A stretch of DNA of 64,000 nt, taken from positions 16,744-80,743 of IMG/VR virus record IMGVR_UViG_3300044712_002699; one strand, written 5' to 3'. Positions within the stretch are counted from its first letter, which is position 1. Every line of letters begins with the position of its first letter. Positions 4,265-64,000 of the stretch are shown here, one piece after another. The notes beneath the pieces are model-generated. The model ran no database searches. It saw nothing but the letters and a program-made list of their open reading frames with translations, and was not told the DNA's origin. Both the position numbers and the translations under genes were made by a program. This stretch comes from a virus.

Positions 4265-4275
4265 ATCAAATCCTT

Positions 4276-8514: not shown

Positions 8515-9274
8515 TACTTTTCTCCTTAGATATAAGAATAAATTGAGGCATAATATTAACATCAAGGAAAAACTTATCTTGAAGACCTCTCCTAACGATA
8601 GCCCGCTCGATTGCTTCTTGGGAACACTTAATTTGCTCCATTCTATGCTCCTTCGTAATAGAATTTCTATGAACTCGATGATAATGGAGGAACCTTTTTA
8701 ATTGATAGACACGTGTAATTTCACATATCCGTAGACAGAGGTCATAGTCAAAACTATAACGTATCGACTCATCAATTCCGCCAACACTGTCATAAATTGA
8801 TTTACGTAGGAGGCGAAAGTGAAACGTAAGAAATTCTGTCAACATTCCTAAATCTGTATAGGGTAAAAGCGAACTCCTTGATTTACCTACAATCCTACCG
8901 CACTCATCAATTAGTTTACAGTGGGTATAAACTAAACCTACATCAGGAAAAGCGTCCAAAACTGCAACTGTTTCTGTAAGCGTCTCTCTATCTATCCTGT
9001 CATCACTATCAACCCACCCCAAATACTCGCCCCTCGCTTCTCTAGCAGCTAACAGCAGCGGATAAGGCGTGCCTAAGTGGTGATGATAGATAACTCTCAT
9101 TCGGTCATCCATAGCCTCATAGTCTCTCAGAATATCTATTGACTTGTCAGTTGAGCCGTCATCCCACACAATAAACTCGAAGTCTTCAAAATCTTGACAT
9201 AAAACACTCTCTAAAGACCTCGCAAGATACTTCTCTCTATTATAAACCGACATTAAAATTGATACTTTAGGCAT
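8504..9274 (-). CDS. Glycosyltransferase family 2
   Basis: VSILMSVYNREKYL, IVWDDGSTD, YLGWVDSDD (DxD) and FDYDLCLR motifs. Confidence 0.93.
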   Translation of the reverse strand: MPKVSILMSVYNREKYLARSLESVLCQDFEDFEFIVWDDGSTDKSIDILRDYEAMDDRMRVIYHHHLGTPYPLLLAAREARGEYLGWVDSDDRIDRETLTETVAVLDAFPDVGLVYTHCKLIDECGRIVGKSRSSLLPYTDLGMLTEFLTFHFRLLRKSIYDSVGGIDESIRYSFDYDLCLRICEITRVYQLKRFLHYHRVHRNSITKEHRMEQIKCSQEAIERAIVRRGLQDKFFLDVNIMPQFILISKEKSNGQ

Positions 9275-28881: not shown

Positions 28882-28943
28882 GACCTTATCTTAAAGAATT
28901 TAATGAAAGACACTTTCTATCTTAAACTTTCAAAAAATTTTTC

Positions 28944-28972
28944 TTGACAAGCGTTATATCTTGTGATATTAT
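28944..28972 (+). promoter_or_regulatory. Sigma70-like promoter upstream of the ligase
   Basis: TTGACA (28944-49), 17 bp spacer, TGn extension, TATTAT (28967-72). Confidence 0.75.
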
Positions 28973-29001
28973 ATAATACAGATAATACTGAGGAGATTGC
29001 A

Positions 29002-31724: not shown

Positions 31725-32870
31725 TCAAGCCACTTTCAGATAATCCTTGTCGTGATAAAAACGAAGATGAATCTCCTCCATTGTTCTTCCAATCAAAACG
31801 CGGTCTGGATCGTTCCGCAGCTTAGATGCTTTCATCAACTGAGTCAACTCTTTATCCTCTTTTTCAGCAAACTCTACAAGTTCCGAATACGTCCACGTCC
31901 CGAAATAACGAATAGCCTTGAGTTCTTCAGCATCAGGTCGCTTAACCTGAACTTTACCGGTAGTTAGAATCTCTCTCGCCATTCTCATCAACTGAACAAG
32001 GCGGGCGGCGTGTTTGGTGTCGTACCCAAACTTAGCTTCGAGTTCTTTTCTCTTTGCGTTCCTCTCTTTAAGCCACCTCCGGTAACCTTCCCACATCTTC
32101 ACTGCCGCCCGATACGCCTTCTCTTTAGCGAGATACTCCATAAAATTCGTATCAAAATTCATGACTCGAAAGGCGGCTCGCTCCAGAATTGATTTGAGTT
32201 CCTTTATCTCAAGATCAACACCAATCTGATTCAAGACGATATTGGTCATGTCAATAATCTCAGGATAAAGCTTGATCTTCAAATCTTCAGGTAACTCGGT
32301 TTGATCGATAAGCCACTCCTCAACTATGAGTTCAAGAATCTTGTCCACCGCGTTGAGTTGGTCTTCAGGGAACTTATAGAGATGAAGTCCGTACTCCTCC
32401 CTGCTTGGCTCGTGGCTAGGCGGGTTTACAAGATATTGATAAGACGATTCAATACGTTTCAACTGCTGAACCGCGTAACCCGAAAACCGGTGCTTTAGAA
32501 CCTTACTCAAGAAAGATTCTCTAATATCAACGAGTTGTTTCCAATATGGAGTGGACAAAATCCAATCCGACTCCTCTGTAAAGAGAAGTTCAATAACATT
32601 CGGGTTTCCGTGAGCAGCAAGTTCAACAAACCGTTGCAGAGAATACACCTCCACGTCATCACTATCAACAGTGATAATTCCCTTATAGTACGTAGAGGTC
32701 TGCTTAGACTGCGCGTGTTGGAACCTATCGAGTCCAAAAATGTAGTTGAGTGGAGGGATCGCTACTCCCCTTAGGTCCGTATCACTCGTTTCGATGTTAG
32801 TGCCGTACGACTCGGAGCCAGCCCTAGTCATGTAGATAGTATTTTTAGCAATCCAATCCTTGATCTGCAT
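31725..32870 (-). CDS. Pol-beta superfamily nucleotidyltransferase (RlaP/Nuc-transf-like)
   Basis: GSESYGTNIETSDTDLRG (GS...DxD), GNPNVIELLF, GYDTKHAARLVQL. Probable start MQIKDW at 32870. Confidence 0.85.
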   Translation of the reverse strand: MQIKDWIAKNTIYMTRAGSESYGTNIETSDTDLRGVAIPPLNYIFGLDRFQHAQSKQTSTYYKGIITVDSDDVEVYSLQRFVELAAHGNPNVIELLFTEESDWILSTPYWKQLVDIRESFLSKVLKHRFSGYAVQQLKRIESSYQYLVNPPSHEPSREEYGLHLYKFPEDQLNAVDKILELIVEEWLIDQTELPEDLKIKLYPEIIDMTNIVLNQIGVDLEIKELKSILERAAFRVMNFDTNFMEYLAKEKAYRAAVKMWEGYRRWLKERNAKRKELEAKFGYDTKHAARLVQLMRMAREILTTGKVQVKRPDAEELKAIRYFGTWTYSELVEFAEKEDKELTQLMKASKLRNDPDRVLIGRTMEEIHLRFYHDKDYLKVA

Positions 32871-32874
32871 CGTC

Positions 32875-33345
32875 TCAATCCTTAAAAACAACTCCCTCTT
32901 TTCGGGGAGGTAACGGTACCACCGACCGCACATAGTCTTTTGCATCATCGAGGGAAATCCCCTCATCTTCTTTCAGCACATCATATTCCCATCCAATGCC
33001 CTTCTCGTGTCTAAGTCTATACGTCAGGTCTAACTCAGTCAGAATCCCCACTGCTTCATCGCTATTGGGATAGTAAAATTCTATCTCGATCCCCCCGTCT
33101 GTCAACGGATAGGCATCAGTCTTTAGGCCGAGGCTTACCCCAAATTCATGGAGCGCAATCGCTGAGTCTACGACGTGTTGAGGCGACGGATCACCATCTC
33201 CAAAATCCCACCCCTTTGGGTGGTTCTTGAATTCTTCTATCTTCTCGAGAGTCGATAGGCTAAAGTAGGGGTCACTTGTTATAATCTTATGAGCCTCGTC
33301 CCAGGTGATATCTTCACCGACCCTCAAACATTTCCATTTTGTCAT
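32875..33345 (-). CDS. Hypothetical protein (GWD...P...GG-I-x-I-E-F family)
   Basis: 156 aa with GAGG RBS. Contains PKGWDFGDGDP...YPLTDGGIEIEF. Confidence 0.65.
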   Translation of the reverse strand: MTKWKCLRVGEDITWDEAHKIITSDPYFSLSTLEKIEEFKNHPKGWDFGDGDPSPQHVVDSAIALHEFGVSLGLKTDAYPLTDGGIEIEFYYPNSDEAVGILTELDLTYRLRHEKGIGWEYDVLKEDEGISLDDAKDYVRSVVPLPPRKEGVVFKD

Positions 33346-34781: not shown

Positions 34782-37700
34782 TTAGTGCGCTCCCGCTTTC
34801 TGGAGGAGGGAAAGGAGACGCGGCGCGCCTATATTCTGAGCAAGTTCTAGGAGAGAAGCACCAGATTTCATTTTCGGGTTGGGGTTTGCTCCTTTATCAA
34901 GGAGATACTGAGCAACTTTGAACTTACCAAGACTCACAGCATACCAAAGAGGTGTTCTACCGTCATCGTCCGAGGCTTCTATATCAGATCCATTCGAGAG
35001 GAACAAATCTATTACTTGAAGGGCCTCGGGTTTCTTACTCTCTATTGCTCTCATAAGGGCTGTCTTACCAGTGGAAGTCCTCTCCTGAACATCTCCGCTT
35101 GCTCCGTGCTTGGCAAGGTACATAACAAGTTCGAGGTCTTTCCTGGCATCAAAAGCAGCAATAAGGAGAGGATCGCCATCCTTGGTGTACGCATAGTCTG
35201 CGCTTGCTCCGTATTGGAAAAGGAGATCGGCTAATTTGTAATCAGATACGGTAACCTGCCCTCTTCTATACTGCCACTGGCTTACAAGAAGAGCAGGAAT
35301 AAGGGCAGTCTCTTTAGAATCGTTCTGATCGTTAGGATCTTCCCCTTCCTTCAAGATATACTTGATTGTGGCAAGAACCTTGTTCTTATCAATCTTTTCT
35401 CTCTCAGCATACCACTGATCTCGGTGAAACTGCCGGATAAGATGCATTAACAAGGTATCACCATAATCGCCTATCCTGTTTTCAAGGTGCGCTCCGTTGT
35501 TTAACAATTCATCTGCGATATCGAGGTCACCCTGAAGAAGTGCATGAACAATCAGAGTATTCCCGTCGTCTAGTTCGATATCAGGATCAATACCATCATC
35601 CATAGCCTTCTTCACAGTCGTAAGATCGTGATTAATAACCGCATCCACAAGCATTACTTCCTGAGGAAGGTTGAGGCGATGAGTCACTTCGTTATCAAAC
35701 ATCACGCTCTTAGCATTGAGAAGTTCCTTCTCATCGATTTCCTTGAAAACACCAGCGGTCTTCGCCTTCTTAAGAAAATCCAAGACATAGTGATGAAAAT
35801 CATCGTCAACAAGACCATCGCCTCGACCGCGTATTGCAGTAATTTTCTTAGACTGCTGGTTGAGAAAAATTATAACCTGACCTCTGTCCTGTCTGTCTCT
35901 GAGACAATAGATAACAAGCTTCTTATTCGCAACATCCTCTTCATGTTTATTGAGTTGTTCATCCTCTTTCTCATCACTGCTGCTGTAATAGCTGCTATAA
36001 GATGAAGATTTTATTCTGACCTTCATCTCCTTGAGAGCAGATTTAATTTCCAATCCACTGTTCAGGATTTCCCACTGAAACCCGTTGGGGTAGTCCTTGA
36101 GGGGGATGCGCCCGATTATCTCGGAAGAATGAATGTCCCTATCGACTCGAGTATCACCTACCTTCATTGCATTGAGAGACTTCTCATATATACCAAAATC
36201 TTTTACGCCGAGTTTCTTAAGAAGAGCATAGAAATATCCTCTGTCTTGGGAGCGTATCACATCCCCATATCCAGCTTCTTTTCCATCTTCGCCGATCCCG
36301 GCTATTCCATCTATTCTGTACTTGGAAACGTCACCGTAATCCGAGCCGTATGTGGATAGACCTAACGCTCCGATAACCGATGATCCATCCTTGAGAGCAT
36401 AGATAAAGTCTTTTCCCGAAGTAATATCTCTCAAATTACTCCCATTGGCTTTGAACTTATAATCATCCTTAAGGGTCTTACATATCTCGCTTAGTTGACT
36501 CACTGTATAAACAGGGTACCACGCAAGCCCACCTGAGAAAGTTAAGACCGGGTCCGGGTCTCCAACGATGTCTTCATAATTTTCATAGGAAAGATAGGAG
36601 CCTTTGAAGTAAATAGACCCAATCGCGTCGAGATAACTTCCATCGATTTGTGTGATGTGTTGGTTATTCAAAAACTCAATAACGTAAGGTTTGAAACTAT
36701 CTTCAACGTCTCCGCCAAGCTCCAGACCTCGGAGATACTCTACCTTAGAGCCATTAACTATTGCAATAACTCGAGAAGATTCTCCCGAGTCTCTCAAGCT
36801 GTAGAAATTGCCCTTACTTATCGAATTCGAAAGCGACCATGAATCTGTCTTGCCTTTATAAGGAATTATTTCTAGGTCTATTTCGTCCTTGTTTTTAAGG
36901 TAAATCCACCTGATTCCGCTGGGCCAACTCATAACGTCCGGCACATCAAGAAGGCGAGCCCCCGCCTCTTCAGGAGTATGAAGTTCTCCATTGATCAGAT
37001 AACCGCCAATATTTTCATATTCCTTGCTGCGATTATACTGGTCGGAATACGTGAGGTAACCTTCCTCTTCCTTAATACTTTTCAAAACATCATAACAATA
37101 AGACCAGTACTTCGTTTCTACCTTTCCCCCAGTATCTAAACCGCGGATAATGGTTACTGTTCCACTATGATTTATGAGGATCACTGCGCGGGGGTTGCTT
37201 CCGGAGTCCTCAAGAACCATTAACTTCGATCCACCATTAATAAGGCTATATTCCAGACGTAATAGGTCAACACCAAATGTCTGACGTACCTCTGAAATGT
37301 CTTCTTCGAGGAACAGATTAATCCACCTCAAACCATTACCGTATGATTTCCTAACCAAACTCTCCGCCGTAGTAATTTGCCTAAACTCATCCCGACTCAT
37401 TACTCTGTCTTGATAGAGAACTGCCCCAACTGCGACAAGTAGTTCCGAATGTTCCTCAAGTCTGGATTGATAAAGTTCGTTCAATAAATCGTAACAGGGA
37501 GGCCAATATTGCTCTCTAACCATATTGCCAACATTAGACGTCACCGAGGTTTTAATATCCTGACGAATATCTCTACCGTCACCGCCGATGTTGGTGGGAT
37601 AAGTTTTATTTACTGCAATCAAGGCTCTAGTCTGGCCCGAAGAATCTTTCAAGAGGTAGGTTCTGGGTTTGTCAGGATCTCCGACTATCAGTTTACTTTC

Positions 37701-39248
37701 ATACCGATCCATACCATATCCTGCTTCAGAAATACCTACGGCATCGAACCCTTCCTCAAGTTCTTCCTGAAGTACGGCGAGTGTCCACTCTAATCCCCCC
37801 GGATAGGTACGTTTTGGTTCTCTTTCCTTCATCAAATTTGAAAATTCTTCTCTCGTCAAAAGATTATTCTCGTAGTAAAGAACCCCAAGAGCCTGCAAAG
37901 TATCCGAATGGTATCCGATAGTGCCCTTCTTGCTGAGGTCGCTTAACAAATCGAAACAGTATTTCCTCACCTCTTCCGAGAATGAAGTTTGATTGTTGTA
38001 GTACCCCCGAGTACCTAGCGTGGCCGATCCGTCACTCACAAAATCAAGTCTGTTTCCCGACACGCCAACTAGAACACGGGTCTTTTCAGAGGTGTCACGT
38101 AACACGTAGAGGCTATTGGAAGTTTTTCCACCAAGAAGGTCATCCTCGAGACGACTGTATGAATAAGGCACAGAAAGATTAATATCTGTAAAGGAAGCAG
38201 TCACATCATCCTGAACTATCACAGACCTCCACTGAAACCTATTGGGGTATTCGAGCAGAGGCTTTTGATTTCGAAGCTCGGCAAGATAATCATCTCGCTT
38301 CATAATCTCGCCATTGTAAAAGACTCCTCCTACATTACCAAGCTCCCGGACATTACTTATCCATCCCTCTTTCTTTCCTTGTCTAAGAAAACTAATTACA
38401 TAGTCGTGATATCTTTCAACAACCGCTTGGTTTCCCTTACCCTTAATCTGGTTGACATCTCTGCCCCGAACTTCTATCGTGACGTGAGGCTCATTCTTCT
38501 CGTCTCTGAGGCTATAAATGATACACTGCTTCGCCTCTACTTGAGACGCATAAGAACCGACACAGTGACCCATCTGAGAGCCTTCTCGGTTTAGGGCATC
38601 TTCCGAAGTTACTTCAACCCACCGATAGCCATTCCCATAGACCTTTATTGTTGTAGTACCTGGTTCGTCTACGGTTTCCGCAGCACCGCCAGCCTTCGAT
38701 TGATTGATAAGCCAAGAAGTCCACTGCTCTGATTTCTTGATAGCTTCAGGAACAGAGATTCGAGTCAAATCATTTACTTTGAGGTCACGTAAAATAGTAT
38801 CTGGATGCTCCAGCATATAATTGAAGTAGTCCACAACATGAGTGACTTTCTCCGTAAAATCCTCTGATTCTACCCCGTTTACATCTACAATAAAGATTTC
38901 TTCTCCCCTCTGAAGTGCAGCATCCATCCAGGCTTGATAATCCCTCGAAGTAGGATCGGGTAACTTAGTCACTTGGTCGGCTTCGGGGTAGTCGTTGATG
39001 AGGAACTTTCTAAGATTGGATTGGAGCCACTTATTTATCTCGGGAAACTGAGCCTGTGCGGTGAACTGTTTGACATATTCATCTATCTCCCACACGTTCG
39101 CGACATTCCTCTCATTGAGAGGCATCACAACATTAAGGGCTTCCAATAAGCCAACAGCGCTAATTAAAGTTCCAGGCAGAACGGGTCTTCGAGCCACAAC
39201 TCCTCCAACAGAGTCTAGCGTTTCAAAAATCTGCCTAGATTTTATCAT
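34782..39248 (-). CDS. PcfJ-like tandem-domain protein with C-terminal ankyrin repeats (1488 aa)
   Basis: REGSQMGHCVGSY...YSLRD...PHVTIEV...QIKGKGN (PcfJ-like) followed by six degenerate copies. C-terminal ankyrin motifs GNTLIVHA, GDTLLMHL, GKTALMRA, GRTPLWYAV...LLDKGANPN. Confidence 0.85.
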   Translation of the reverse strand: MIKSRQIFETLDSVGGVVARRPVLPGTLISAVGLLEALNVVMPLNERNVANVWEIDEYVKQFTAQAQFPEINKWLQSNLRKFLINDYPEADQVTKLPDPTSRDYQAWMDAALQRGEEIFIVDVNGVESEDFTEKVTHVVDYFNYMLEHPDTILRDLKVNDLTRISVPEAIKKSEQWTSWLINQSKAGGAAETVDEPGTTTIKVYGNGYRWVEVTSEDALNREGSQMGHCVGSYASQVEAKQCIIYSLRDEKNEPHVTIEVRGRDVNQIKGKGNQAVVERYHDYVISFLRQGKKEGWISNVRELGNVGGVFYNGEIMKRDDYLAELRNQKPLLEYPNRFQWRSVIVQDDVTASFTDINLSVPYSYSRLEDDLLGGKTSNSLYVLRDTSEKTRVLVGVSGNRLDFVSDGSATLGTRGYYNNQTSFSEEVRKYCFDLLSDLSKKGTIGYHSDTLQALGVLYYENNLLTREEFSNLMKEREPKRTYPGGLEWTLAVLQEELEEGFDAVGISEAGYGMDRYESKLIVGDPDKPRTYLLKDSSGQTRALIAVNKTYPTNIGGDGRDIRQDIKTSVTSNVGNMVREQYWPPCYDLLNELYQSRLEEHSELLVAVGAVLYQDRVMSRDEFRQITTAESLVRKSYGNGLRWINLFLEEDISEVRQTFGVDLLRLEYSLINGGSKLMVLEDSGSNPRAVILINHSGTVTIIRGLDTGGKVETKYWSYCYDVLKSIKEEEGYLTYSDQYNRSKEYENIGGYLINGELHTPEEAGARLLDVPDVMSWPSGIRWIYLKNKDEIDLEIIPYKGKTDSWSLSNSISKGNFYSLRDSGESSRVIAIVNGSKVEYLRGLELGGDVEDSFKPYVIEFLNNQHITQIDGSYLDAIGSIYFKGSYLSYENYEDIVGDPDPVLTFSGGLAWYPVYTVSQLSEICKTLKDDYKFKANGSNLRDITSGKDFIYALKDGSSVIGALGLSTYGSDYGDVSKYRIDGIAGIGEDGKEAGYGDVIRSQDRGYFYALLKKLGVKDFGIYEKSLNAMKVGDTRVDRDIHSSEIIGRIPLKDYPNGFQWEILNSGLEIKSALKEMKVRIKSSSYSSYYSSSDEKEDEQLNKHEEDVANKKLVIYCLRDRQDRGQVIIFLNQQSKKITAIRGRGDGLVDDDFHHYVLDFLKKAKTAGVFKEIDEKELLNAKSVMFDNEVTHRLNLPQEVMLVDAVINHDLTTVKKAMDDGIDPDIELDDGNTLIVHALLQGDLDIADELLNNGAHLENRIGDYGDTLLMHLIRQFHRDQWYAEREKIDKNKVLATIKYILKEGEDPNDQNDSKETALIPALLVSQWQYRRGQVTVSDYKLADLLFQYGASADYAYTKDGDPLLIAAFDARKDLELVMYLAKHGASGDVQERTSTGKTALMRAIESKKPEALQVIDLFLSNGSDIEASDDDGRTPLWYAVSLGKFKVAQYLLDKGANPNPKMKSGASLLELAQNIGAPRLLSLLQKAGAH

Positions 39249-44942: not shown

Positions 44943-45785
44943 TTATAGTGCGAGAGAGATAAGTCTATCCTTGTTAAGGCTTCTTGCGCCAGGAACGAAA
45001 ACTAAATCCGGGTATCTCCCAAAGGTATAGGATCTATGACAGTTACCACACAAAACTACACACTTATTTAATTCCGGAATAAGGTTCTCGAATGAGAGGC
45101 TTCGGCGGTTGGTGATAGTAAAACTTTTTGTAGATGGATCGACGTGATGAAATTCGTACCTCGGGAGGTCTACGTGAACCCGCCCACAAATTTCACATTT
45201 TCCGCCTAGGTATTCCACGCATTTCCACTTTCGGGCATCTAACCTCTTATCTCTTACTAAGTTATCGTGGTGTTTATTAGGTTTTGACCTCATAGTTTGT
45301 TGGGTCAAGACATTATGACATTCAGTACATAGAAGAATACACTTCCTCATTTCAGGAATAGCTTCAGTCTCCCAATTCTTATGCATCATATTAGTTATCT
45401 GACTGTCTTTTTCCTCCGGGTTTCTGTGATGACAATGGTATACCTCGTACCAATCTGTTTCTAGTCCGCACAGTTCACACTTTGCTCCCATATACAAGAC
45501 TACTTTCCTAGCAAATTCCCAATAGATTTCCCTTTTCCCGGCTGCTATCCGATCCCTATTTTCGACCCGATACTGCTTTTTCTGTCGGTGTATCTGGTCA
45601 TAGTTATCTTGGCGGTATTGTACACTGTATATCCTTGCTTCCTCTTTATGCTTATCCCGATATACCTTATCGCAAGATTTACATTTGTTCTGGTAACCGT
45701 CGGGTGACCTTCGCAAGATAGCATATTCACTTAGCGGCTTAACTTGTTTACAAATATTACATCTCTTCGAGTTTACTTCTGTCAT
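44943..45785 (-). CDS. HNH-type homing endonuclease with two tandem HNH-like modules; paralog of 27796..28881
   Basis: CELCGLETDWYEVYHCHHRNPEEK...KCILLCTECH and CEICG...EFHHVDPSTK...KCVVLCGNCH. Confidence 0.8.
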   Translation of the reverse strand: MTEVNSKRCNICKQVKPLSEYAILRRSPDGYQNKCKSCDKVYRDKHKEEARIYSVQYRQDNYDQIHRQKKQYRVENRDRIAAGKREIYWEFARKVVLYMGAKCELCGLETDWYEVYHCHHRNPEEKDSQITNMMHKNWETEAIPEMRKCILLCTECHNVLTQQTMRSKPNKHHDNLVRDKRLDARKWKCVEYLGGKCEICGRVHVDLPRYEFHHVDPSTKSFTITNRRSLSFENLIPELNKCVVLCGNCHRSYTFGRYPDLVFVPGARSLNKDRLISLAL

Positions 45786-52888: not shown

Positions 52889-53382
52889 TATGCTGACCAA
52901 AAACTAATTGAGTCTTCAGGAAAATCACCGCTTACCAATTTAAACATTTGTTCCTCGATTTCGGGGTTCGGAAAATCAGTGATTCGGATCACCGTTTTTA
53001 CCTCATTCAATTCCCCGAAAAAGATTAGGCTCGCCTTTTTTCTGTCGGAACTCTGCTGAATTAAGACCCCCTCACTTTCTTTTATAAGCCTTGGTAGAGT
53101 CGTAAAAAATGTATCGTGTTCTACTCGATGGTTAAGAAACTCAGTTAGTTCAGGAAAATACTCTAGGGCTCTATTGGCTTGTTTAGGAAGAAAATAAGCC
53201 CTCTCTGAGAGGAGCCCCATACCTAGAATATTTAATAAGGCCCTGACACTTCCTAAACCCCCTATCACTGCCCCTGTAGGTGTAACAGAGAGACCGGCAA
53301 GTTCTGCCAGTTTGGTCATACCCGCCAATCCTAGGGCCTCATCTATTTTATAAAGTATGCTTTGAGCCGTTATCATCTTCAT
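52888..53382 (-). CDS. Hypothetical protein with the shared leader and a Gly/hydrophobic segment
   Basis: (MK)MITAQSILYKIDE|ALGLAG...GAVIGGLG. Confidence 0.7.
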   Translation of the reverse strand: MKMITAQSILYKIDEALGLAGMTKLAELAGLSVTPTGAVIGGLGSVRALLNILGMGLLSERAYFLPKQANRALEYFPELTEFLNHRVEHDTFFTTLPRLIKESEGVLIQQSSDRKKASLIFFGELNEVKTVIRITDFPNPEIEEQMFKLVSGDFPEDSISFWSA

Positions 53383-54221
53383 TACCCGCGTAGTCTTTTT
53401 CTAACGTAGTGCGTTGGAGCCCCGGGTCTTAACATATGGATAGATCCAAAACTTACTGCATCTGCTCCCATCATAAAGGCTCGATGAATGTCTTCGTAGC
53501 ACCAAATATCAGGGAGTATTAGTGGGACCTTAGAGTCGTTAATAATTTGACGAGCAGCCTTCCAGTTAACCTCCTGTGCCGCTTGGCCTGAGACTCCTCC
53601 TCCACCTAAGTGTTGAAGTGGAGATTTCTTATTAGGAAAAACAAGAGACCACGGAACAGAATTGAGAGTAACAGCGTCTAGGCTATTAGCAACTTTGGGG
53701 ATAAGATACACCTGTTCAGAGTTGAATTTTCCAATCAACCCACAACTTGCTCCGATCATTTTTCTAACTGATTCGCAAGTCTCTACAATTTCTTCAGGCT
53801 CATTCTTTTTGAACGTGGGGCAAGAAAAATTTAGTTCAATCCCATCAAGTGGAAAACCTCTTGTCCGGCCCACCATCATTCGAATCTCGTACATACTTCC
53901 TGCTAAACTTATAACTAGAGGCGGTTTTTTCCTACTCCCATTCAAAAATCCTTCGGGAAAATTTCTCATCCACCTGTCTATACCTGGATTAGGGAGACCT
54001 AAAGCGTTTACAACTCCGCCGCGTATCAATCTTACTGCTGAGAGGTTTCCTGTCTTAGGCTCTAGAGTTAGCGTTTTTGAAACTACGAGGAAGAGGTTAG
54101 GATTGATTAGTCCGCACCAAACTAGAGGGCGCTCCCAAGGCCATCCTTGTCCATAAAACCCCAGAGCGCCGGAAGCAACAACAAATTCGAATTCAAGACC
54201 ATTGGGGAAACGTATCATCAC
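53382..54221 (-). CDS. pyrD: Dihydroorotate dehydrogenase-like FMN enzyme (class 1)
   Basis: VVASG, SKTLT, NALGLPNPG, ELNFSCP (catalytic Cys), GGGVSG, GADAVSFGS. Confidence 0.8.
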   Translation of the reverse strand: MMIRFPNGLEFEFVVASGALGFYGQGWPWERPLVWCGLINPNLFLVVSKTLTLEPKTGNLSAVRLIRGGVVNALGLPNPGIDRWMRNFPEGFLNGSRKKPPLVISLAGSMYEIRMMVGRTRGFPLDGIELNFSCPTFKKNEPEEIVETCESVRKMIGASCGLIGKFNSEQVYLIPKVANSLDAVTLNSVPWSLVFPNKKSPLQHLGGGGVSGQAAQEVNWKAARQIINDSKVPLILPDIWCYEDIHRAFMMGADAVSFGSIHMLRPGAPTHYVRKRLRG

Positions 54222-56794: not shown

Positions 56795-57208
56795 CTAACC
56801 GGTTGTATCCCAAAAGGGAGTAGCCGATGGGTTAGGCCCACCCTGATTACAAATCTTGGCTATTTCCGGCCATCGAAGCTGACATTCAAAGTCTTTGTCG
56901 GGGTTAGCCTTCAAAAAGTCTATCCAATTCTCGTAACCCTCAGGAGAAAGTTTCGGGATTCCGAGAAACTTGTCGGTCGGCCCAAACAGTTTCATGTAGG
57001 CTTCGAGTTTCCAGCCCTCAAGAGCGGCAGGGGTCGTGAAGGTACGCATTCCTGTCTTGAATACAAAATTATTGTTCTCAGAATCATATCTACAATAGCC
57101 TGGAATACTTCTCCCTGACAGAAAAGACTCACTCATTACAGACTCGAGTTCTTCGGTGAGGGTTTCTGCTTTACTCTTAGGCCCTATGGGGATTCTAATT
57201 TTTGGCAT
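56795..57208 (-). CDS. Hypothetical protein
   Basis: 137 aa with AGGAG RBS; ...SKAETLTEELESVMSE|S. Confidence 0.65.
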   Translation of the reverse strand: MPKIRIPIGPKSKAETLTEELESVMSESFLSGRSIPGYCRYDSENNNFVFKTGMRTFTTPAALEGWKLEAYMKLFGPTDKFLGIPKLSPEGYENWIDFLKANPDKDFECQLRWPEIAKICNQGGPNPSATPFWDTTG

Positions 57209-57278
57209 AACAAACTGCTCCTATGAATTGTCATAGATTTCCAAAAGAAAAACAAAAGGAGCAGATAAATTGGGTGTG

Positions 57279-58124
57279 CTATAATTCGGAAAGAATCCAG
57301 GGGCCGTCTTCGGTTATTGCTACGGAGTGTTCAAAATGTGCGCTAAGTGATCCATCCTTAGTAACTATTGTCTGACCTCGATGCGAAATCTTCCAGGTAC
57401 CCGCATTAACCATTGGCTCAAGAGCAAGAACCATTCCAGGTACAAGCTGAACCTTATTGTTAGTCGAGGAAAAGTAATTGTGGAGCGACGGGGGTTCGTG
57501 AATTTTTCTTCCAATTCCATGACCGGTGTAATCCCGGACTAAACTAAAACCCCCTGCCTCAGCGCAATCCTGAACAGACCTCGATATGTCGGCCAAAGAA
57601 TTTCCAGGCACCATTTTAGCAATTCCTGCATAAAGAGCAGATCGAGTAGTTTCTATGAGACGCGTCGCTAGGTCTGAAACTCTTCCTACCGGATAGGTTC
57701 TCGCAGTATCTGCCTTCCAACCCTTATAGTCAATACAAAGGTCAATACCAACAATATCACCCTCTACCAGCACCTGTTTTTTAGGGATTCCATGACCAAC
57801 CTCTTCGTTGACTGAGGCACAAACTACCGCGGGCCAAGGACAACCTCCCACGGGATACCCTAGCATGGCGGAGGTTCCTTCAGAGAGATGGATTCGCTTC
57901 TCCACTTCTCGATTTATGTCTTCTGTGGTTATTCCCGGAACAATAAATTTCTCTAAGTGTTGCAGAATGGCAGCGGCGATGAGGTTTGCTTGCCTCATCA
58001 ATAGGAGATCCTCCCTAGATTTCAGAGTAATCCCTAAGTATTCAAGATCAGATACGACAAACAAATCATCACCGTCTTCATGAATCCACACAAAATCAAA
58101 TGTTTCTGGATCTTCAATCTTCAT
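57279..58124 (-). CDS. map: Type I methionine aminopeptidase
   Basis: CASVNEEVGHGIP, GDIVGID...ADTART, GHGIG..IHEPP, ALEPMVN, SAHFEHSV metal ligands. Confidence 0.95.
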   Translation of the reverse strand: MKIEDPETFDFVWIHEDGDDLFVVSDLEYLGITLKSREDLLLMRQANLIAAAILQHLEKFIVPGITTEDINREVEKRIHLSEGTSAMLGYPVGGCPWPAVVCASVNEEVGHGIPKKQVLVEGDIVGIDLCIDYKGWKADTARTYPVGRVSDLATRLIETTRSALYAGIAKMVPGNSLADISRSVQDCAEAGGFSLVRDYTGHGIGRKIHEPPSLHNYFSSTNNKVQLVPGMVLALEPMVNAGTWKISHRGQTIVTKDGSLSAHFEHSVAITEDGPWILSEL

Positions 58125-58326
58125 CGCTACCTTCAAAATCTCCGCGCCAGAAATTCGGAGAAAATATCTGGACGGAAGTTAGGCGCGTAGAAGATGAAGA
58201 AACAGGAACAATTTTGTTCCGGACAAGAAACTGTATAAGCCTCTCCCTGTCTTCCTCACGCCTTTCAGCAGACAATTCATCAGACGGGGTACAGAATCCG
58301 ATCTGAGCATCTATTAGGCGGTTCAT
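58114..58326 (-). CDS. Small hypothetical protein
   Basis: 70 aa, coupled to its neighbours. Confidence 0.45.
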   Translation of the reverse strand: MNRLIDAQIGFCTPSDELSAERREEDRERLIQFLVRNKIVPVSSSSTRLTSVQIFSPNFWRGDFEGSDED

Positions 58327-58682
58327 GATGCTTTTTTCCTCTGTTTCCTATCCTTAATGCCTTCGAGAAAAGAGCCCATTATCTGTGCCTCCCGGCCACG
58401 TTCATGGACTTGTAGGTAGCAATTGTACGATCCGAGAGAGGCACCGGTTTCTCGGTCCTGGCTTTCCTTATAGACAACCTGGAGCCGAGTCGCTGTACCT
58501 TCATAGGCCAGGAGCGGTTTCAAGCAAGACAGAACGGAATCGATGAACTCCTTCGTTCCAGTGATGCGGATACCATCCTCCGCATAGGTAGATCCGCTGT
58601 GTTTATACGGAACCGGCGTTACTCTCAGCGGCTGGTTTTCGGGGAGACCTTTCCAGTGTTCAAGCATTTCATCTTTTTTCAT
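58323..58682 (-). CDS. Hypothetical phage protein
   Basis: GGAGG RBS before MKKDE; YAEDGIRITGTKEFIDSVLS. Confidence 0.7.
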   Translation of the reverse strand: MKKDEMLEHWKGLPENQPLRVTPVPYKHSGSTYAEDGIRITGTKEFIDSVLSCLKPLLAYEGTATRLQVVYKESQDRETGASLGSYNCYLQVHERGREAQIMGSFLEGIKDRKQRKKAS

Positions 58683-58725
58683 CTTATCCTCCAAGTCTTA
58701 AGAAAAAATCACGCAGCGTCTTGTG

Positions 58726-59241
58726 TTACTCATCTTCATCATACTCTTCGTCTTCTTCGTACTCAAGTCTCGTGAAACATTCACAGCAGACCGGGTCTCC
58801 CGCAACCCATGTAATTCCACCCTCTGAGTGATAGTCTTCTTCGAGATAGAACGTCTGACTGGGGTCGATAAGTTCTATCCCGCAGACCTTACACGGGAAA
58901 GTGAACCACTCAATGTCGTTCTGTTCTGCCAATTTGAGTAGACCCTGAACATAGGAGCCAGGAATGTCTTCTTTGAAGTCTGTTACAAAATGTATCTCGC
59001 CTAGGTTGAGAAGCACTTCTCGATTGCTGTCCGTCTCTTTCCACTTATAATTCCCGTAGTGTCTCGGATCGTTGGCCCAGATAATTTTGCCGCGATCAAT
59101 AAGGGCAACAACCCATAACCAGAAACAGCCATCATAAGGGCTCCAAGCCTTAGCCTTCAAGATGGAACCGTCGTGTTTTCCTTGAGCGATTTCTCGCAGG
59201 ATAAGGCCGACTTGCTTTGGGTTAGTTTCATATTTGCTCAT
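58726..59241 (-). CDS. Hypothetical protein with a C-terminal CxxC...CxxC zinc motif and acidic tail
   Basis: Start MSKYETN with GGAG RBS; CKVC...CCEC. Confidence 0.65.
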   Translation of the reverse strand: MSKYETNPKQVGLILREIAQGKHDGSILKAKAWSPYDGCFWLWVVALIDRGKIIWANDPRHYGNYKWKETDSNREVLLNLGEIHFVTDFKEDIPGSYVQGLLKLAEQNDIEWFTFPCKVCGIELIDPSQTFYLEEDYHSEGGITWVAGDPVCCECFTRLEYEEDEEYDEDE

Positions 59242-59242
59242 G

Positions 59243-59872
59243 TTACTTATCTCCGCCCGGATACATCTCTTGAAGGGTCTGGTTCCAGCCAAACGTCACT
59301 GTAGCAGCCTTTTCCTTCTTAGGTTTAGGAGCCGCCTCGTAGGGCTTCCCGTATATGACTGTATAGACTTCGACAGGAATTTGTCGATGGTACTTTCGGA
59401 GCAGTTGGAACCCTACCCACGCTTGTTTGTAGGTTAGAGACTCCCGTAGGGCAAGCTCATGACCCAGACCGGCATCGTGCGCGTTGAACCCGGCATAATC
59501 GCGAGCCCATGCTCCGTCACACATCCCTGCCAGACTTTTCAGTGTTTTATGAATAGCAGAAACCTGTTCCTCAGACAGCGCGTTGTTCTTTTTCGTGCCA
59601 GCCGCCATTGCAGCCCGAACTGTCTCGATTTCCTTTTCCGTAAGAGCGCGCATCTCCTTCACCGCGTCAGGGGTTTTAGCAAACGCCTTCTCTAGACGAT
59701 CCCGGCACGTTTCATCTGCAAACATGTAAAGAAAACAAGCAACTCCTTCCCAGGGAGTGTGCCAAATCTTGCGCTCTCCATCCCATGTCCACTTGCCGCA
59801 CCGCTTAACGAGTTCCTTATCTTCGAAACGGCACTTGACCTCGAATTCGGTTCCGTTAAACGTCAATCTCAT
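59243..59872 (-). CDS. Two-domain protein: DUF5710-like N-terminus plus a C-terminal CDGA...DxxGFNxxD domain
   Basis: FEDKELVKRCGKWTWDGERKIWH and LAGMCDGAWARDYAGFNAHDAGLGHELA...LTYKQ...LLRKYHRQI. Start 59872 after GGAGG. Confidence 0.65.
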   Translation of the reverse strand: MRLTFNGTEFEVKCRFEDKELVKRCGKWTWDGERKIWHTPWEGVACFLYMFADETCRDRLEKAFAKTPDAVKEMRALTEKEIETVRAAMAAGTKKNNALSEEQVSAIHKTLKSLAGMCDGAWARDYAGFNAHDAGLGHELALRESLTYKQAWVGFQLLRKYHRQIPVEVYTVIYGKPYEAAPKPKKEKAATVTFGWNQTLQEMYPGGDK

Positions 59873-59906
59873 TGCCTGCACCTCCAATTCCGTTTTATCT
59901 ATAATC

Positions 59907-59935
59907 ATAATACCATACGCGCACCCCTTTGTCAA
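59907..59935 (-). promoter_or_regulatory. Sigma70-like promoter with extended -10, divergent from the ncRNA promoter
   Basis: Minus strand TTGACA-N17-TATTAT, preceded by TATGG. Confidence 0.8.
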
Positions 59936-60051
59936 GTAAAATCTTTTTACCCAAAAAATTTTCTTTTTTCGTCTCCAAACGGAAAAATTTAATAGATAAA
60001 TATCCGTTTTTACTTAACAAAAAGAAAAATTCTTTTACGATTAAAAAAGTC

Positions 60052-60080
60052 TTGACAACAAATCCATTTTGAACTATCTT
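60052..60080 (+). promoter_or_regulatory. Sigma70-like promoter for the putative large ncRNA
   Basis: TTGACA (60052-57), 17 bp spacer, TATCTT (60075-80), A-rich upstream region. Predicted +1 near 60087 coincides with the first hairpin. Confidence 0.65.
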
Positions 60081-60086
60081 CTAACT

Positions 60087-61180
60087 ATCGGACAGTTCGA
60101 GAGGTTGTTCGATGTGAGACTCAGAGAGGGATTCGCAAATCCCTGGACGAGCCTGCTGTTAAGGAGACGTTATTAGCAGCGGGGGCTTTGAGGAGAGGGA
60201 ACTCAAATCAAGGCTAGATTGGCATAGGGCTTAGACGAGGTGAAGGCTCGAACCTGCCTCTACATCAAAGCCGCCAGAGAATACGTCAGGCTTCGACTAA
60301 TCGAGGCTATAATAGAACCAACAAGGAAGGGTCAGGTTTAGATAGATAAGCGGAAGATAGGGACTTTTGATCTAGAAACCCTAAGACCTGGATGAGAAGT
60401 GAAGCCCAAAAGGCAGAACGGCCACTCAAAAGGGTAGCGGGGAATCCGGAGATAGGGAAACAAAAAGAAGTGAGTCTATCGAGTCTAGGCAATTCCGAGA
60501 AGGCAACTAGGTAGCGCAGAAGAAATCGAAGAGCCGTATCCCGAAAGGATATCTTGGCGGAATTCAACGGCGTATGATGTAGGGTAAACCTTAAACGCGG
60601 TAAGCAGGGACACCAGCCGGTGTGTGGTTCAGTTTTAGTGTCGATAGACTGAGCCCACCAGCCACACTAAGACCCTTCTAGGACTCTGGTCTAATAAGCC
60701 AGAGCAGGACAAAAACGGGGTTCACGACCCCTTCACTAGCGGCACTGCCGGATCGGGGATGTCCTTCCCGCCAGAGCCGGTTAATAGTGATAAAACCTGA
60801 TCGCAGATCGGGGATCGTTCCTAGAAGGTGATACTGGTGAATCCGGCCAGAAGATGAGAGTCTTCGGTTCTATTGCCAAGCAGTTGGGTAGCAACCAACT
60901 GTGGTGTCTCAGCGGGGTGCTGAGACCTCTGAGGCTTCGCTATGACGAACAACCGGAAGTGGGAGTAATCGTAGGCCACGAGACCTCCCACTTTTCTCCA
61001 CCCTCAAGGAGAACACTCTCTGGGGTAAGAGTCCTTGAGGAATTTCAGTGATTGCTCGTTATCGAGAATGCCCTATAGGATCACTGGTTATGTTATCGGC
61101 CTAAAAACAATGGAAAATACTACAGCCTAATTTAGTGGGCCGTACTATATACCCAGATGTTCTAAGGGATGTCTGGGTTG
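60087..61180 (+). ncRNA. Putative large structured non-coding RNA (~0.9-1.1 kb; GOLLD/ROOL size class, family unassigned)
   Basis: No credible ORF in an otherwise gene-dense genome. More than 15 hairpins, long-range helices 60117-23/60471-77 and 60674-83/60819-28, GNRA loops, G-U pairs consistent with the + strand, own promoter and a terminal hairpin. Confidence 0.7.
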
Positions 61181-61184
61181 TTGT
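61151..61184 (+). terminator. Candidate terminator hairpin closing the ncRNA unit
   Basis: ACCCAGATGTTC-TAAG-GGATGTCTGGGT (12 bp, three G-U) followed by TGTTGT. An alternative hairpin plus T-run lies at 60957-60995. Confidence 0.5.
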
Positions 61185-61206
61185 GTCTACAGGGTCAAAA
61201 ATTCTC

Positions 61207-61235
61207 TTGACAACCCAATAGAAATGAGATAGATA
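61207..61235 (+). promoter_or_regulatory. Sigma70-like promoter
   Basis: TTGACA at 61207-12 with a weaker -10 (TAGATA) at 17 bp, upstream of an AGGAGG RBS. Confidence 0.45.
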
Positions 61236-61264
61236 GAAATATTGGGACAACAGGAGGATAAACA

Positions 61265-61753
61265 ATGGAAGACCTCAAGACACGGTTTCTAGCCTTGGTC
61301 AATCTCTACGGACACCAATGGAACATCATTTCCGGCATCCTTACCAAAGAGGGTTATAAGACCCCCAACGGTTCCAAAATTTGGTCAAATAACTGCGCCC
61401 GAAAGTTCTACAATCGAACCCTCAGGACAGATAAATCACCCTACGATCACCGGTCAATTCTTCCGGGTATCGGTTCTGTGAAACCCGTTAAGGGCTACGT
61501 TGACTGGTGGAATAGGACGCGACGACCCGAGGGTGAAGAGATAGATCGAAAACCAATTCTTAATGGTCGAAGACAAAAAATCGGGCCGAGAGTGAACGTC
61601 AATCTTTTGAATCTCGTTAAGAAGCAAATGAAGGAAGACGGAATTCTTGACCAGAACAATCTGTCGGCACTAGTTGAGTTTCTCCTTTTCCGGTACGCGG
61701 GTTCACCTGAAAGTCTGATGAGACCGGAAGAGATGCAAGCGGAGACATTCTAG
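61265..61753 (+). CDS. Putative DNA-binding protein (recombinase-type motif plus RHH-like domain), same architecture as 31071..31652
   Basis: ISGILTKEGYKTPNGSKIWS and PRVNVNLLNLVKKQMKE...NLSALVEFLLFRY. Confidence 0.6.
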   Translation: MEDLKTRFLALVNLYGHQWNIISGILTKEGYKTPNGSKIWSNNCARKFYNRTLRTDKSPYDHRSILPGIGSVKPVKGYVDWWNRTRRPEGEEIDRKPILNGRRQKIGPRVNVNLLNLVKKQMKEDGILDQNNLSALVEFLLFRYAGSPESLMRPEEMQAETF

Positions 61754-61754
61754 C

Positions 61755-62165
61755 CTAGTCCAATTCTTTTACCATATCCTGTACGTCCTTAAAGGCTTCG
61801 CGAACCTGACTCTGAGTTACACAGAGTCGGTTTGTGACGTCTGCAATATCCAAATCTCCGCGCTCCACGAGCTTGCGGAATAACTGCTGGAGGTGACGCT
61901 CCTTTTTCAGATCGTACTTTTCGATAAGTTGCTCATTACTCAGCCCCTCGTTCAAGTCCTTAAGAAATCCTTTTCGGTCAATAGACCTGTGAACCTTTTT
62001 CTTAACTTCCGCCATTTCTTTCAGAACGCGCCTTACCTGTAACTTCAGGATAGCAAGAGATTTCTTACTAGATATTGAATACTTCTTCAGTAATTCGTCA
62101 TCACTGACTCCGTTTGACACGTCTTCTGCAAATTGGACGGCGACGCGTCCGGCTAGTCGGGACAT
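61755..62165 (-). CDS. Small helical protein with a duplicated D...G.S...L..KY motif (family recalled from Desulfomonile-type genomes)
   Basis: EDVSNGVSDDELLKKYSI and KDLNEGLSNEQLIEKYDL...LQQLFRKLVERG. AGGAG RBS. Confidence 0.65.
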   Translation of the reverse strand: MSRLAGRVAVQFAEDVSNGVSDDELLKKYSISSKKSLAILKLQVRRVLKEMAEVKKKVHRSIDRKGFLKDLNEGLSNEQLIEKYDLKKERHLQQLFRKLVERGDLDIADVTNRLCVTQSQVREAFKDVQDMVKELD

Positions 62166-62207
62166 CTCTTCTCCTGCAAAAATTTACCATAATTCTGCAA
62201 AAAATAC

Positions 62208-62236
62208 TTGACATTATGGTAATGGTATGGTATTAT
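62208..62236 (+). promoter_or_regulatory. Sigma70-like promoter with extended -10
   Basis: TTGACA-N17-TATTAT, preceded by TATGG. Confidence 0.8.
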
Positions 62237-62265
62237 GTATCTAGGTAGAAACAAAGAGGGCTTAG

Positions 62266-63105
62266 ATGAAAGACGCATTAGAGACAGGAGCAGCAATGAC
62301 TCAAGAAAAAATCCATGTGTGGGAAGCTGTTGGACACGGAAAAGCCCCGTTTCGTCTCGTCGGCGTCATTTCTTTTCCCGGGTCTGGACTAGCAGAAGCC
62401 AATGTTGATGCCTACAATAACGCGCTGCGAGAAGTGTCTCAGTTAAGCCAAGCCTACGGTGTTACCGGGCACCTCGGTATCTGCGACGTCTGCGGTCACG
62501 AGCTTATGAACAACTACGTTATCCGTTCCAAAGACGGCAAAACCTTTGTCGTTGGTTCCGAGTGTGTTCTAAAAAGCGGAGATGGCGGTCTTGTCGAGAG
62601 GGTAAAACTGGAGGAACGGAAGAGGCGCAAAGCAAAGGAAAATGAAAAGCGACGACTCCAGTGGGAGGCGGAGACCCCTCTCCGAGAGGCTAAAGATAGA
62701 GTTTGTAGAGAAATACAGGATAGAAAAAGAGAGATCGAAAAGGAACTCTCCCAAGTAATCTTGGCAGAGAATACTTGGTTCATTGAGGTATTGACTACAA
62801 TAAACGGCGACTTTGCTGCCAGTCTTGCCGAAGACCTAAGGCACAAATCAATGGGTGACCTCTCAGAGAAGTGTCTCACTATCTGTGGAGAAATCTACGC
62901 CAAACACATCGCGGGGAGTCGTAAAAATAAGACTCAGTACTATGATGCCTTCGATGAGTTCTTTAGGCGAAAAAGACAAAGTGCAAATACTGTTCAAGAA
63001 AAGAGAACTGAGGCATGGGAACAGGAACGGATGCTTGATGAAGAGTACAGACAGAGATGTAAAAAACTAGAGAAAGAGTTTATTGAAAGGGGCGTTATAG
63101 AATGA
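62266..63105 (+). CDS. Hypothetical phage protein with a zinc-binding motif and coiled coil
   Basis: GHGKAPFRLVG...CDVCGHEL...FVVGSECVLK, then a charged helix. Confidence 0.7.
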   Translation: MKDALETGAAMTQEKIHVWEAVGHGKAPFRLVGVISFPGSGLAEANVDAYNNALREVSQLSQAYGVTGHLGICDVCGHELMNNYVIRSKDGKTFVVGSECVLKSGDGGLVERVKLEERKRRKAKENEKRRLQWEAETPLREAKDRVCREIQDRKREIEKELSQVILAENTWFIEVLTTINGDFAASLAEDLRHKSMGDLSEKCLTICGEIYAKHIAGSRKNKTQYYDAFDEFFRRKRQSANTVQEKRTEAWEQERMLDEEYRQRCKKLEKEFIERGVIE

Positions 63106-63617
63106 GCAGTTTGTCAAACGAAATGCTTGCGGAGATTCAGGGCCGTCTCAATGAAGCAGGTTACGTTCTGACCGAAACAAATCACGACTTGCGATTCGTA
63201 AAAGATGGATTGGGCTCGATTAAAATCAAGGTATATCCTGATTGGATAGAAGTCTCCGGTGGAGACTATCCGACCTTTGATGGAGTCGGCAGACGCCCAA
63301 GAGAAACATATCGATTGTCCCTGAAACCGCGCACTGTAGGGAAACGAATCGTGGATCAAATCGTTACGCCCCACGAAGAAGTCTACAAGGTAGCGCTGGC
63401 TAGAAAGATGTTCGAGATGTCGATGGACGATTTGGTAGCGGAAACTAAGGAGGCCCTAGGCGATCTCGGTAAGAAAATCAGTATCCGGTGGAGTGACAAT
63501 CTTCACAGAGGCGAAGTCCGGTTCACGATAGGGCTAGAAAGAGAGGCTTATGGGGGTCTCTCAATAGATGAATGGGCCACTGCCGCGGAAGTTCTTCAAA
63601 AATATCTCAAAAAGTGA
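63102..63617 (+). CDS. Hypothetical protein
   Basis: 171 aa, ATGA-coupled. Confidence 0.65.
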   Translation: MSSLSNEMLAEIQGRLNEAGYVLTETNHDLRFVKDGLGSIKIKVYPDWIEVSGGDYPTFDGVGRRPRETYRLSLKPRTVGKRIVDQIVTPHEEVYKVALARKMFEMSMDDLVAETKEALGDLGKKISIRWSDNLHRGEVRFTIGLEREAYGGLSIDEWATAAEVLQKYLKK

Positions 63618-63625
63618 GGTAACTG

Positions 63626-64000
63626 ATGTACGAGATGAGCCGCGAAGAAATAGATAGGATTATGAACCTCTCCGACGAGGAAAGGGAACGAGCCATTAAT
63701 GACCATCGCCGAAAAGCAGAGGATTATGAAAGAGGGTTCAACATCGGAAAATCCCTCGCCGATCTTCCATGTCCGGCTCGCAGCAGCGATCCCGCGATAC
63801 GGGGTTTCTTGGATGCCATTGACCGCCAACACAGAACTCACCAACAAAACATCTTTAGGGTCATTTACCTGACGTGTAAGATGTGGGCAGCGAACAAGAA
63901 AAAGGGCGGGGGCTGGTATGATGCCAGAAACGAAGCAGCAGTGGAAGGCTCAGAAAGGATTGTAAAAGTCCTCGATGACCTCCCGATCCCTTATATCTGA
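63626..64000 (+). CDS. Hypothetical protein
   Basis: 124 aa with GAGG RBS; HRTHQQ...YDARNEAA. Confidence 0.65.
   Translation: MYEMSREEIDRIMNLSDEERERAINDHRRKAEDYERGFNIGKSLADLPCPARSSDPAIRGFLDAIDRQHRTHQQNIFRVIYLTCKMWAANKKKGGGWYDARNEAAVEGSERIVKVLDDLPIPYI

Follow-up and report, generated by a model that had tools for sequence, protein, structure and literature searches.

A probable gene for a discrete, structured non-coding RNA of about 850 nucleotides in a T4-like phage

We describe a segment of phage DNA (60087/60100-60954, + strand) that is probably the gene of a discrete, very stable and structured non-coding RNA of ~850 nt, representing a class without an entry in Rfam 15 and carried by a T4-like phage. 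RNA of that extent exists as a contig of its own in RNA libraries from several habitats and in several variants, and its two ends are predicted to pair with certainty. The analysis follows up an earlier note which had proposed a large structured non-coding RNA with its own promoter; that proposal is supported, and it came through the tests of coding potential, folding and discrete RNA as far as contigs allow. To our knowledge, only a handful of bacterial and phage RNAs longer than 500 nt and of unknown function are known. Were another class to be added, cryo-EM could readily be applied to it and the use of such RNAs to phages could be investigated; the present candidate is abundant in environmental RNA, its ends are defined and several variants of it occur in nature.

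The gene-free gap and its signals

The window, i.e., the whole 64-kb stretch of DNA that was analysed, comprises bases 16744-80743 of an 80.7-kb IMG/VR record that CheckV rates as ~36% complete. IMG/VR labels the record a provirus; no sign of an integrated provirus was noticed in it despite that label. Two genes of the record, both located before the window, identify the carrier:

Record 3112-4563 (-): Gp23-type major capsid protein
Record 5376-6905 (-): S77 prohead protease

Given this capsid protein and protease, the source of the RNA gene is a T4-like phage, and probably a jumbo phage. Because its nearest major capsid proteins are only 36% identical among isolated phages (Rhizobium phages) and 30% identical in IMG/VR, the phage lineage is, as judged by these sequences, isolated.

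The gap lies at the junction of a long leftward operon and rightward genes, and genes are tightly packed elsewhere. It had been described as the only ~1.3-kb gap in a packed genome, and this is borne out: 59936-61264 is the largest stretch of the window without an open reading frame of at least 100 aa. No coding signature was found in 60040-61260, where each of the six frames contains 16-28 stops and all three stop types are present. Since the three stop types are frequent in all six frames, no stop reassignment opens the gap; with TAG decoded as Gln, or TGA as Trp (code 4), every frame of 60040-61260 stays closed. A 40-codon ATG reading frame at 60392-60514 contains ten of the differences that distinguish the window from a soil variant (run X9, see below), distributed 3/3/4 on codon positions 1/2/3. 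Protein coding by the gap 60040-61260 is impossible. The elements that flank the RNA are the following:

59907-59935 (-): divergent promoter TTGACA-17-TATTAT with TG, score 11/12, for the leftward operon with first gene 59243-59872
60050-60080 (+): sigma-70-type promoter with extended -35 word TCTTGACAA, 17-nt spacer and -10 TATCTT, score 10/12
60955-60998 (+): terminator-like hairpin with an 11-bp outer stem, -20 kcal/mol, followed by UUUUCU, directly 3' of the closing helix
61002-61178 (+): spacer with hairpins 61002-61040 and 61151-61178 (the latter terminator-like), outside the stable RNA
61205-61264 (+): separate promoter word TCTTGACAA and Shine-Dalgarno sequence for gene 61265-61753

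The promoter TTGACA-N17-TATCTT that the earlier note had read is thus present at 60052-60080, and the predicted +1 of the RNA gene falls at ~60087. The exact word TCTTGACAA occurs in the window only at 28942(+), 31708(-), 60050(+) and 61205(+), each time in an intergenic position upstream of a gene and in matching orientation, and from its sequence and placement it looks like the mark of a class of host-type (early?) promoters of this phage. Near-copies are found at 59929(-) and 39261(-). Because a promoter word of the downstream gene itself is located at 61205, the RNA is not a leader of 61265-61753. At the other end of the RNA gene, the predicted hairpin at 60955-60998 is likely its terminator.

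A gap between divergent operons could also house an element that acts at the DNA level, for instance an origin of replication or, where the two operons diverge, a regulatory spacer, with the RNA being incidental. The A/T-rich segment 59928-60034, between the divergent promoters, contains a 34-nt direct repeat (59956-89 and 59998-60031) as well as inverted repeats, and its sequence suggests a possible role as an operator or in DNA bending. However, these repeats are situated upstream of the promoter and outside the RNA body, and 60100-60954 itself contains no iterons, only 10-16-nt words in two copies. The evidence from RNA runs, given in the next section, counts against this explanation as well, and we regard it as highly improbable.

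RNA species in public sequencing runs

Public runs were searched by words with 60040-61260 as the query, the search being performed on Logan contigs and not on raw reads. Parts of the stretch are found in 20 listed runs from 10 studies (11 of the 20 are on record as RNA), and the habitats of these runs include soil, wetland, sediment, activated sludge, wastewater and fresh water. The contigs of four runs, designated X2, X3, X4 and X9, were compared with positions 57000-64000 of the window.

In the freshwater run X2, a whole contig of 847 nt corresponds to 60104-60950 with 2 differences. The soil RNA run X9 contains an 852-nt match to 60100-60951 with 67 differences and a depth of 103, beyond which there is only Illumina adaptor. 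In the wetland RNA run X4, near-identical pieces end at 60955. The same run contains an 860-nt contig that starts at ~60094 and aligns only at 60124-60256 (79%) and 60900-60929 (29/30); between 60256 and 60900, 648 letters that cannot be aligned at 80% replace the 643 of the window. The two shared end blocks and the similar amount of sequence between them indicate that X4 holds a divergent full-length homologue. A fourth variant, again from X2, covers 60697-60781 with 11 differences, the stem CUCUGG/CCAGAG being kept and the loop replaced.

None of X2, X4 and X9 covers 60040-60099 or 60956-61260, though both segments are within the query, and the spacer 61002-61178 accordingly has zero cover in these runs. 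In the DNA-like run X3, both flanks are covered at 99-100% identity and one contig crosses the 3' border to 61015, so that RNA region and phage flanks occur together in this run. The flank gaps of X4 and X9 are not counted as evidence because the phages in these runs may be too diverged. Contig ends that are shared among three studies while the DNA continues would by themselves be a weak hint; together with the depth, we read them as the ends of a discrete, abundant RNA. At the contig level, then, the discrete transcript that had been called for is found as an RNA species of ~850 nt in RNA runs of three studies, with its strand, exact ends and expression level derived indirectly, from contigs. 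Beyond 60951, on the + strand, the adaptor sequence is presumably of the TruSeq read-2 type. In dUTP-stranded kits a read-2-type adaptor at this place would mean RNA of + sense, a weak hint given its dependence on the library kit.

The contigs also alter the dimensions of the gene. The earlier estimate of ~1.1 kb is revised to ~850-870 nt, from 60087/60100 to 60950/60954, and the 3' border is not at 61184. The last two hairpins that had been assigned to the RNA, 60957-93 and 61004-40, are outside the RNA contigs, and the former looks like a terminator. One organism-labelled (non-metagenome) run, X11, contains 20% of the words that were sampled from the RNA region and could point to a host or a culture.

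Searches of DNA collections returned little. No usable homologue was obtained when the region was compared with 50,697 phage records by blastn or by a search for exact conserved blocks in IMG/VR, and words from the loose ends of two divergent RNA variants had no usable match in IMG/VR. A pattern of the 3' hairpin was found at 7 loci in 241 million JGI records, all of them an unrelated terminator-region hairpin, and a block identical in the 92% variant (that of X9) gave only 5 chance 19-22-mers in GTDB (one genome for each of 185,579 species). The contigs of three distant capsid relatives contain no match to the RNA, no locus with the RNA was found when the flank protein 61265-61753 was searched in viral and metagenome contigs, and the left flank protein led to one unrelated high-GC locus without the RNA.

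These results bear on the question of whose RNA is sequenced in the metatranscriptomes. It could come mainly from cellular or other mobile genomes, in which case the phage copy would be captured or hitch-hiking and the RNA would still be a non-coding RNA. Such an origin could account for the number of sequence variants, at least four, that occur in soil, wetland, fresh water and wastewater, for a phage lineage almost absent from DNA collections, as its capsid comparisons indicate, and for the uncovered phage flank in X2, X4 and X9. On the other hand, the conserved blocks are absent from the GTDB genomes and the 3' hairpin block occurs in the JGI records only in the unrelated element, the RNA gene shares its promoter word with other genes of the same phage, and X3 joins the RNA region to the phage flanks. 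We therefore consider a foreign origin unlikely and continue to treat the RNA as a product of the phage. The contrast between a common RNA and a nearly absent DNA hints at a widespread phage lineage that is under-sampled by metagenomes.

Predicted fold and natural variants

The predicted anatomy of the RNA is as follows:

60087-60102 (+): short 5' leader that folds into a small hairpin (60088-92/60096-100) and is probably either trimmed off or poorly covered in the RNA contigs
60100-60954 (+): body of the stable RNA, ~851-855 nt, as defined by RNA-run contigs of three studies
60103-60111 (+): closing helix P1, 5' strand GGUUGUUCG, paired with 60946-60954
60120-60215 (+): P2 5' strand (60120-26) and hairpins 60127-44, 60152-83 and 60184-215, mean pair probabilities 0.95-1.00
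60219-60608 (+): large central multibranch region, helix probabilities 0.4-0.99
60674-60828 (+): self-contained 3' domain with a perfect 10-bp closing helix 60674-83/60819-28 and four inner stems
60850-60933 (+): three terminal hairpins, 60850-65 (GAGA loop), 60880-902 and 60906-26, followed by the P2 3' strand 60927-33
60946-60954 (+): closing helix P1, 3' strand CGAACAACC, inside which RNA contigs end, at 60950/60951

The body consists of 59% purines, and its minimum free energy (MFE) structure, at -317.1 kcal/mol, has 63% of the bases paired and 19 hairpin loops. P1 comprises 9 bp with a pair probability of 1.0, even in the fold of the full precursor 60087-60998. Inward of P1 follow a helix 60114-18/60936-40, then P2 (60120-26/60927-33) and then the three 5' hairpins. 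The central region 60219-60608 is predicted with the least certainty and differs most among the variants. In the 3' domain the closing helix has a probability of 0.97 and the inner stems 0.92-0.98. The best conserved block is 60900-60929, where the divergent X4 homologue differs at 1 of 30 positions.

Most of the local stems listed earlier by inspection are located in the MFE structure with high pair probability:

60127-33/60138-44, 60152-62/60173-83, 60536-41/60547-52 and 60626-35/60646-55 (+): confirmed stems 5' of the self-contained 3' domain
60684-90/60698-704, 60717-22/60726-31 and 60796-802/60806-12 (+): confirmed stems of the self-contained 3' domain
60850-55/60860-65, 60880-87/60895-902 and 60906-13/60919-26 (+): confirmed stems of the terminal hairpins

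Among the local stems, 60290-96/60301-07 is absent from the MFE structure, in which its strands have other partners. Similarly, one of the two long-range helices, the 10-bp helix 60674-83/60819-28, is recovered while the other, 60117-23/60471-77, is absent from the MFE structure. The GAGA-capped hairpin that had been placed at 60087-60113 is not the preferred fold either, as 60103-11 pairs with 60946-54 at a probability of 1.0. Going by the predicted structure, this 5' hairpin and the helices 60117-23/60471-77 and 60290-96/60301-07 are probably wrong.

Comparison with dinucleotide shuffles, which the earlier note had proposed as a check, finds the + strand fold more stable than the shuffled sequences (MFE z -4.65). 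The - strand gives z -5.36 as well, and consequently energy alone picks no strand. Loop motifs of the CsrA-sponge kind are not over-represented in the RNA, the only mild enrichments being GCCAGA (4x) and CGGGG (6x).

A distinction between the strands does come from the natural variation in X9. We used the differences in 60100-60456, for which the list is apparently complete; they amount to 39 substitutions, nearly all of them transitions. This segment holds 39 of the 67 differences, i.e., 10.9% in the 5' 357 nt compared with 5.7% in the rest. Twenty of the 39 substitutions fall in pairs of the MFE structure, and 14 of the 20 keep a standard pair. When substitutions are placed at random on the same bases, 12.0±2.2 pairs of the + strand are expected to be broken, compared with 6 observed (P=0.005), whereas no depletion is seen on the - strand (P=0.88 when its own MFE structure is used, P=0.30 with the mirrored structure). 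The six pair-breaking changes are all located within 60366-60456. In the hairpins 60152-83 and 60184-215, all six paired substitutions keep pairing via G-U, A-U or G-C.

All 14 pair-keeping changes are one-sided (for example A-U to G-U, or U-G to C-G), and the X9 data contain zero pairs in which both sides changed. The natural variation hence supports a conserved + strand structure by one-sided changes and is not a covariation test. A chimera of the window sequence with the 39 X9 changes folds at -327.6 kcal/mol, compared with -317.1 kcal/mol for the window and -299.0±6.8 kcal/mol for 72 random equivalents, of which 0/72 are as stable; this energy test does not separate the strands either. For the X4 homologue, P2 was followed by eye from 30+17 loose letters. 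The pairs 60122-60931 and 60123-60930 are compensated (C-G to U-A and A-U to G-C), the next two pairs mismatch, and P1 is not recovered from the shortened contig end.

Abundance of contigs proves stability and not function, and no partner or target of the RNA has been identified. Both points would suit a functionless, nuclease-resistant by-product, namely a fragment processed out of an early transcript, whose accumulation would be due solely to its tight folding. Against this, the RNA has its own strong promoter and a terminator-like hairpin, 1.3 kb are kept gene-free in a dense genome, and the RNA is conserved at 92-99.8% across habitats with substitutions that spare pairs. We judge a mere by-product to be very unlikely and favour a gene that is maintained for its RNA.

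Known large RNAs, possible role and genome context

The 4227 models of Rfam 15 give no hit in the window at the gathering score. At E<=10 with lax filters, there is no relevant match on the 1.45-kb region or on its 450-500-nt halves, and the remaining 16.7 kb of the record are likewise without an Rfam hit (the record represents only ~36% of the genome). GOLLD, ROOL, OLE, HEARO, group I and II introns, RNase P, tmRNA, rRNA and known ribozymes were considered as identities and set aside, as none of their Rfam models matches. The earlier note had left the choice between a divergent member of a known family and a new class to such a scan; with no Rfam hit, the new class is the branch that is supported. 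ARAGORN finds no tRNA or tmRNA in the 64-kb window, in agreement with the statement that no tRNA cluster flanks the RNA. By eye, GAGCCGUAU at 60531-39 (nine bases), followed by a GAAA-containing loop, resembles domain V of a group II intron; this candidate was rejected because the needed 3' strand is absent, the element being a plain 6-bp hairpin with a CGAAA loop, and no intron model matches.

GOLLD RNAs exceed 800 nt, are multi-domain, encoded by phages or prophages, strongly expressed and found in freshwater samples, have no known protein partner and are more variable in the 5' part than in the 3' part (PMC12286853). The present RNA is similar in being 847-860 nt long, multi-domain and phage-encoded, in its more variable 5' part and in its occurrence in fresh water. 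It differs in that the Rfam GOLLD model does not match it at E<=10, in that the 64-kb window is free of tRNA genes, be they adjacent or embedded, whereas GOLLD is frequently associated with tRNAs, and in its carrier, a T4-like phage of 43-45% GC from rhizosphere and water samples. The likenesses in size, phage origin, abundance and 5' variability (the last as described for GOLLD in PMC12286853) are what a very divergent member of GOLLD, ROOL or another large family, beyond the reach of the Rfam models, would display. The scan of all 4227 models with lax filters and in pieces of 450-500 nt, and the lack of a nearby tRNA, argue against such membership, which we consider improbable in comparison with a separate class.

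ROOL is likewise a phage-encoded, abundant and ornate RNA of unknown function (PMC12286853). The present RNA shares these properties of phage origin, abundance and ornate structure with ROOL but differs in its length of ~850 nt, in having no match to the Rfam ROOL model and in the absence of a tRNA island nearby. ROOL is ~580 nt long. OLE, raiA and HEARO are also large, highly structured and highly expressed non-coding RNAs of bacteria, which were found by comparative genomics; they differ in being chromosomal, and none of their Rfam models matches the RNA described here. GOLLD, ROOL and OLE have recently proved to be RNA-only multimers and cages.

The following course of events is proposed for the RNA. 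Host RNA polymerase would start at ~60087 from TCTTGACAA-N17-TATCTT and stop at the hairpin 60955-60998, and the leader and trailer would be trimmed back to the closing helix P1. P1 and the compact multi-domain fold would shield the product from exonucleases, as a result of which it would accumulate far above the neighbouring mRNAs. By analogy with GOLLD and ROOL, it may act as RNA, as a structural or scaffold RNA of infection that possibly self-assembles or engages the translation apparatus, a suggestion we make tentatively; it would then be neither an antisense regulator nor a cis-acting leader. A broader and more doubtful picture, also drawn by analogy, is that giant ornate RNAs of this kind form a new class, cosmopolitan across soil and water habitats, which would be among the most abundant transcripts of a T4-like jumbo lineage scarce in DNA surveys and would form a homo-oligomeric RNA assembly or engage the translation machinery of the host during infection.

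The first gene to the right of the RNA, 61265-61753(+), matches no family, and a search of 5.8 billion proteins yields just two homologues of it, at 64-67% identity. Its N-terminus, with a Myb/SANT-like W..I..L...T...C.R pattern recognized by eye, suggests a DNA-binding regulator. Other genes of the window include:

4276-6999: Kelch-repeat protein
9274-14259 (-): giant open reading frame of 1661 aa
14261-27250 (-): giant open reading frame of 4329 aa
27796-28881 and 44943-45785 (-): two paralogous HNH/endonuclease VII-type genes, probably homing endonucleases
28963-30795 (+): auxiliary, NAD-dependent DNA ligase
31725-32966 (-): auxiliary, phrog_388 nucleotidyltransferase
34782-39248 (-): giant open reading frame of 1488 aa
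48199-49038 (-): auxiliary, spermidine synthase
53382-54221 (-): auxiliary, dihydroorotate-dehydrogenase-like
57279-58136 (-): auxiliary, M24 peptidase (methionine aminopeptidase type)

The M24 aminopeptidase gene is two genes away from the RNA gene. Before the window, the record encodes a protein that combines sigma-70 region 4/LuxR-type HTH motifs with a LAGLIDADG-like domain (record 1815-2900, - strand) and a 688-aa hybrid sensor kinase with two PAS domains, HATPase and receiver domain (record 10535-12601, - strand), an unusual cargo for a phage.
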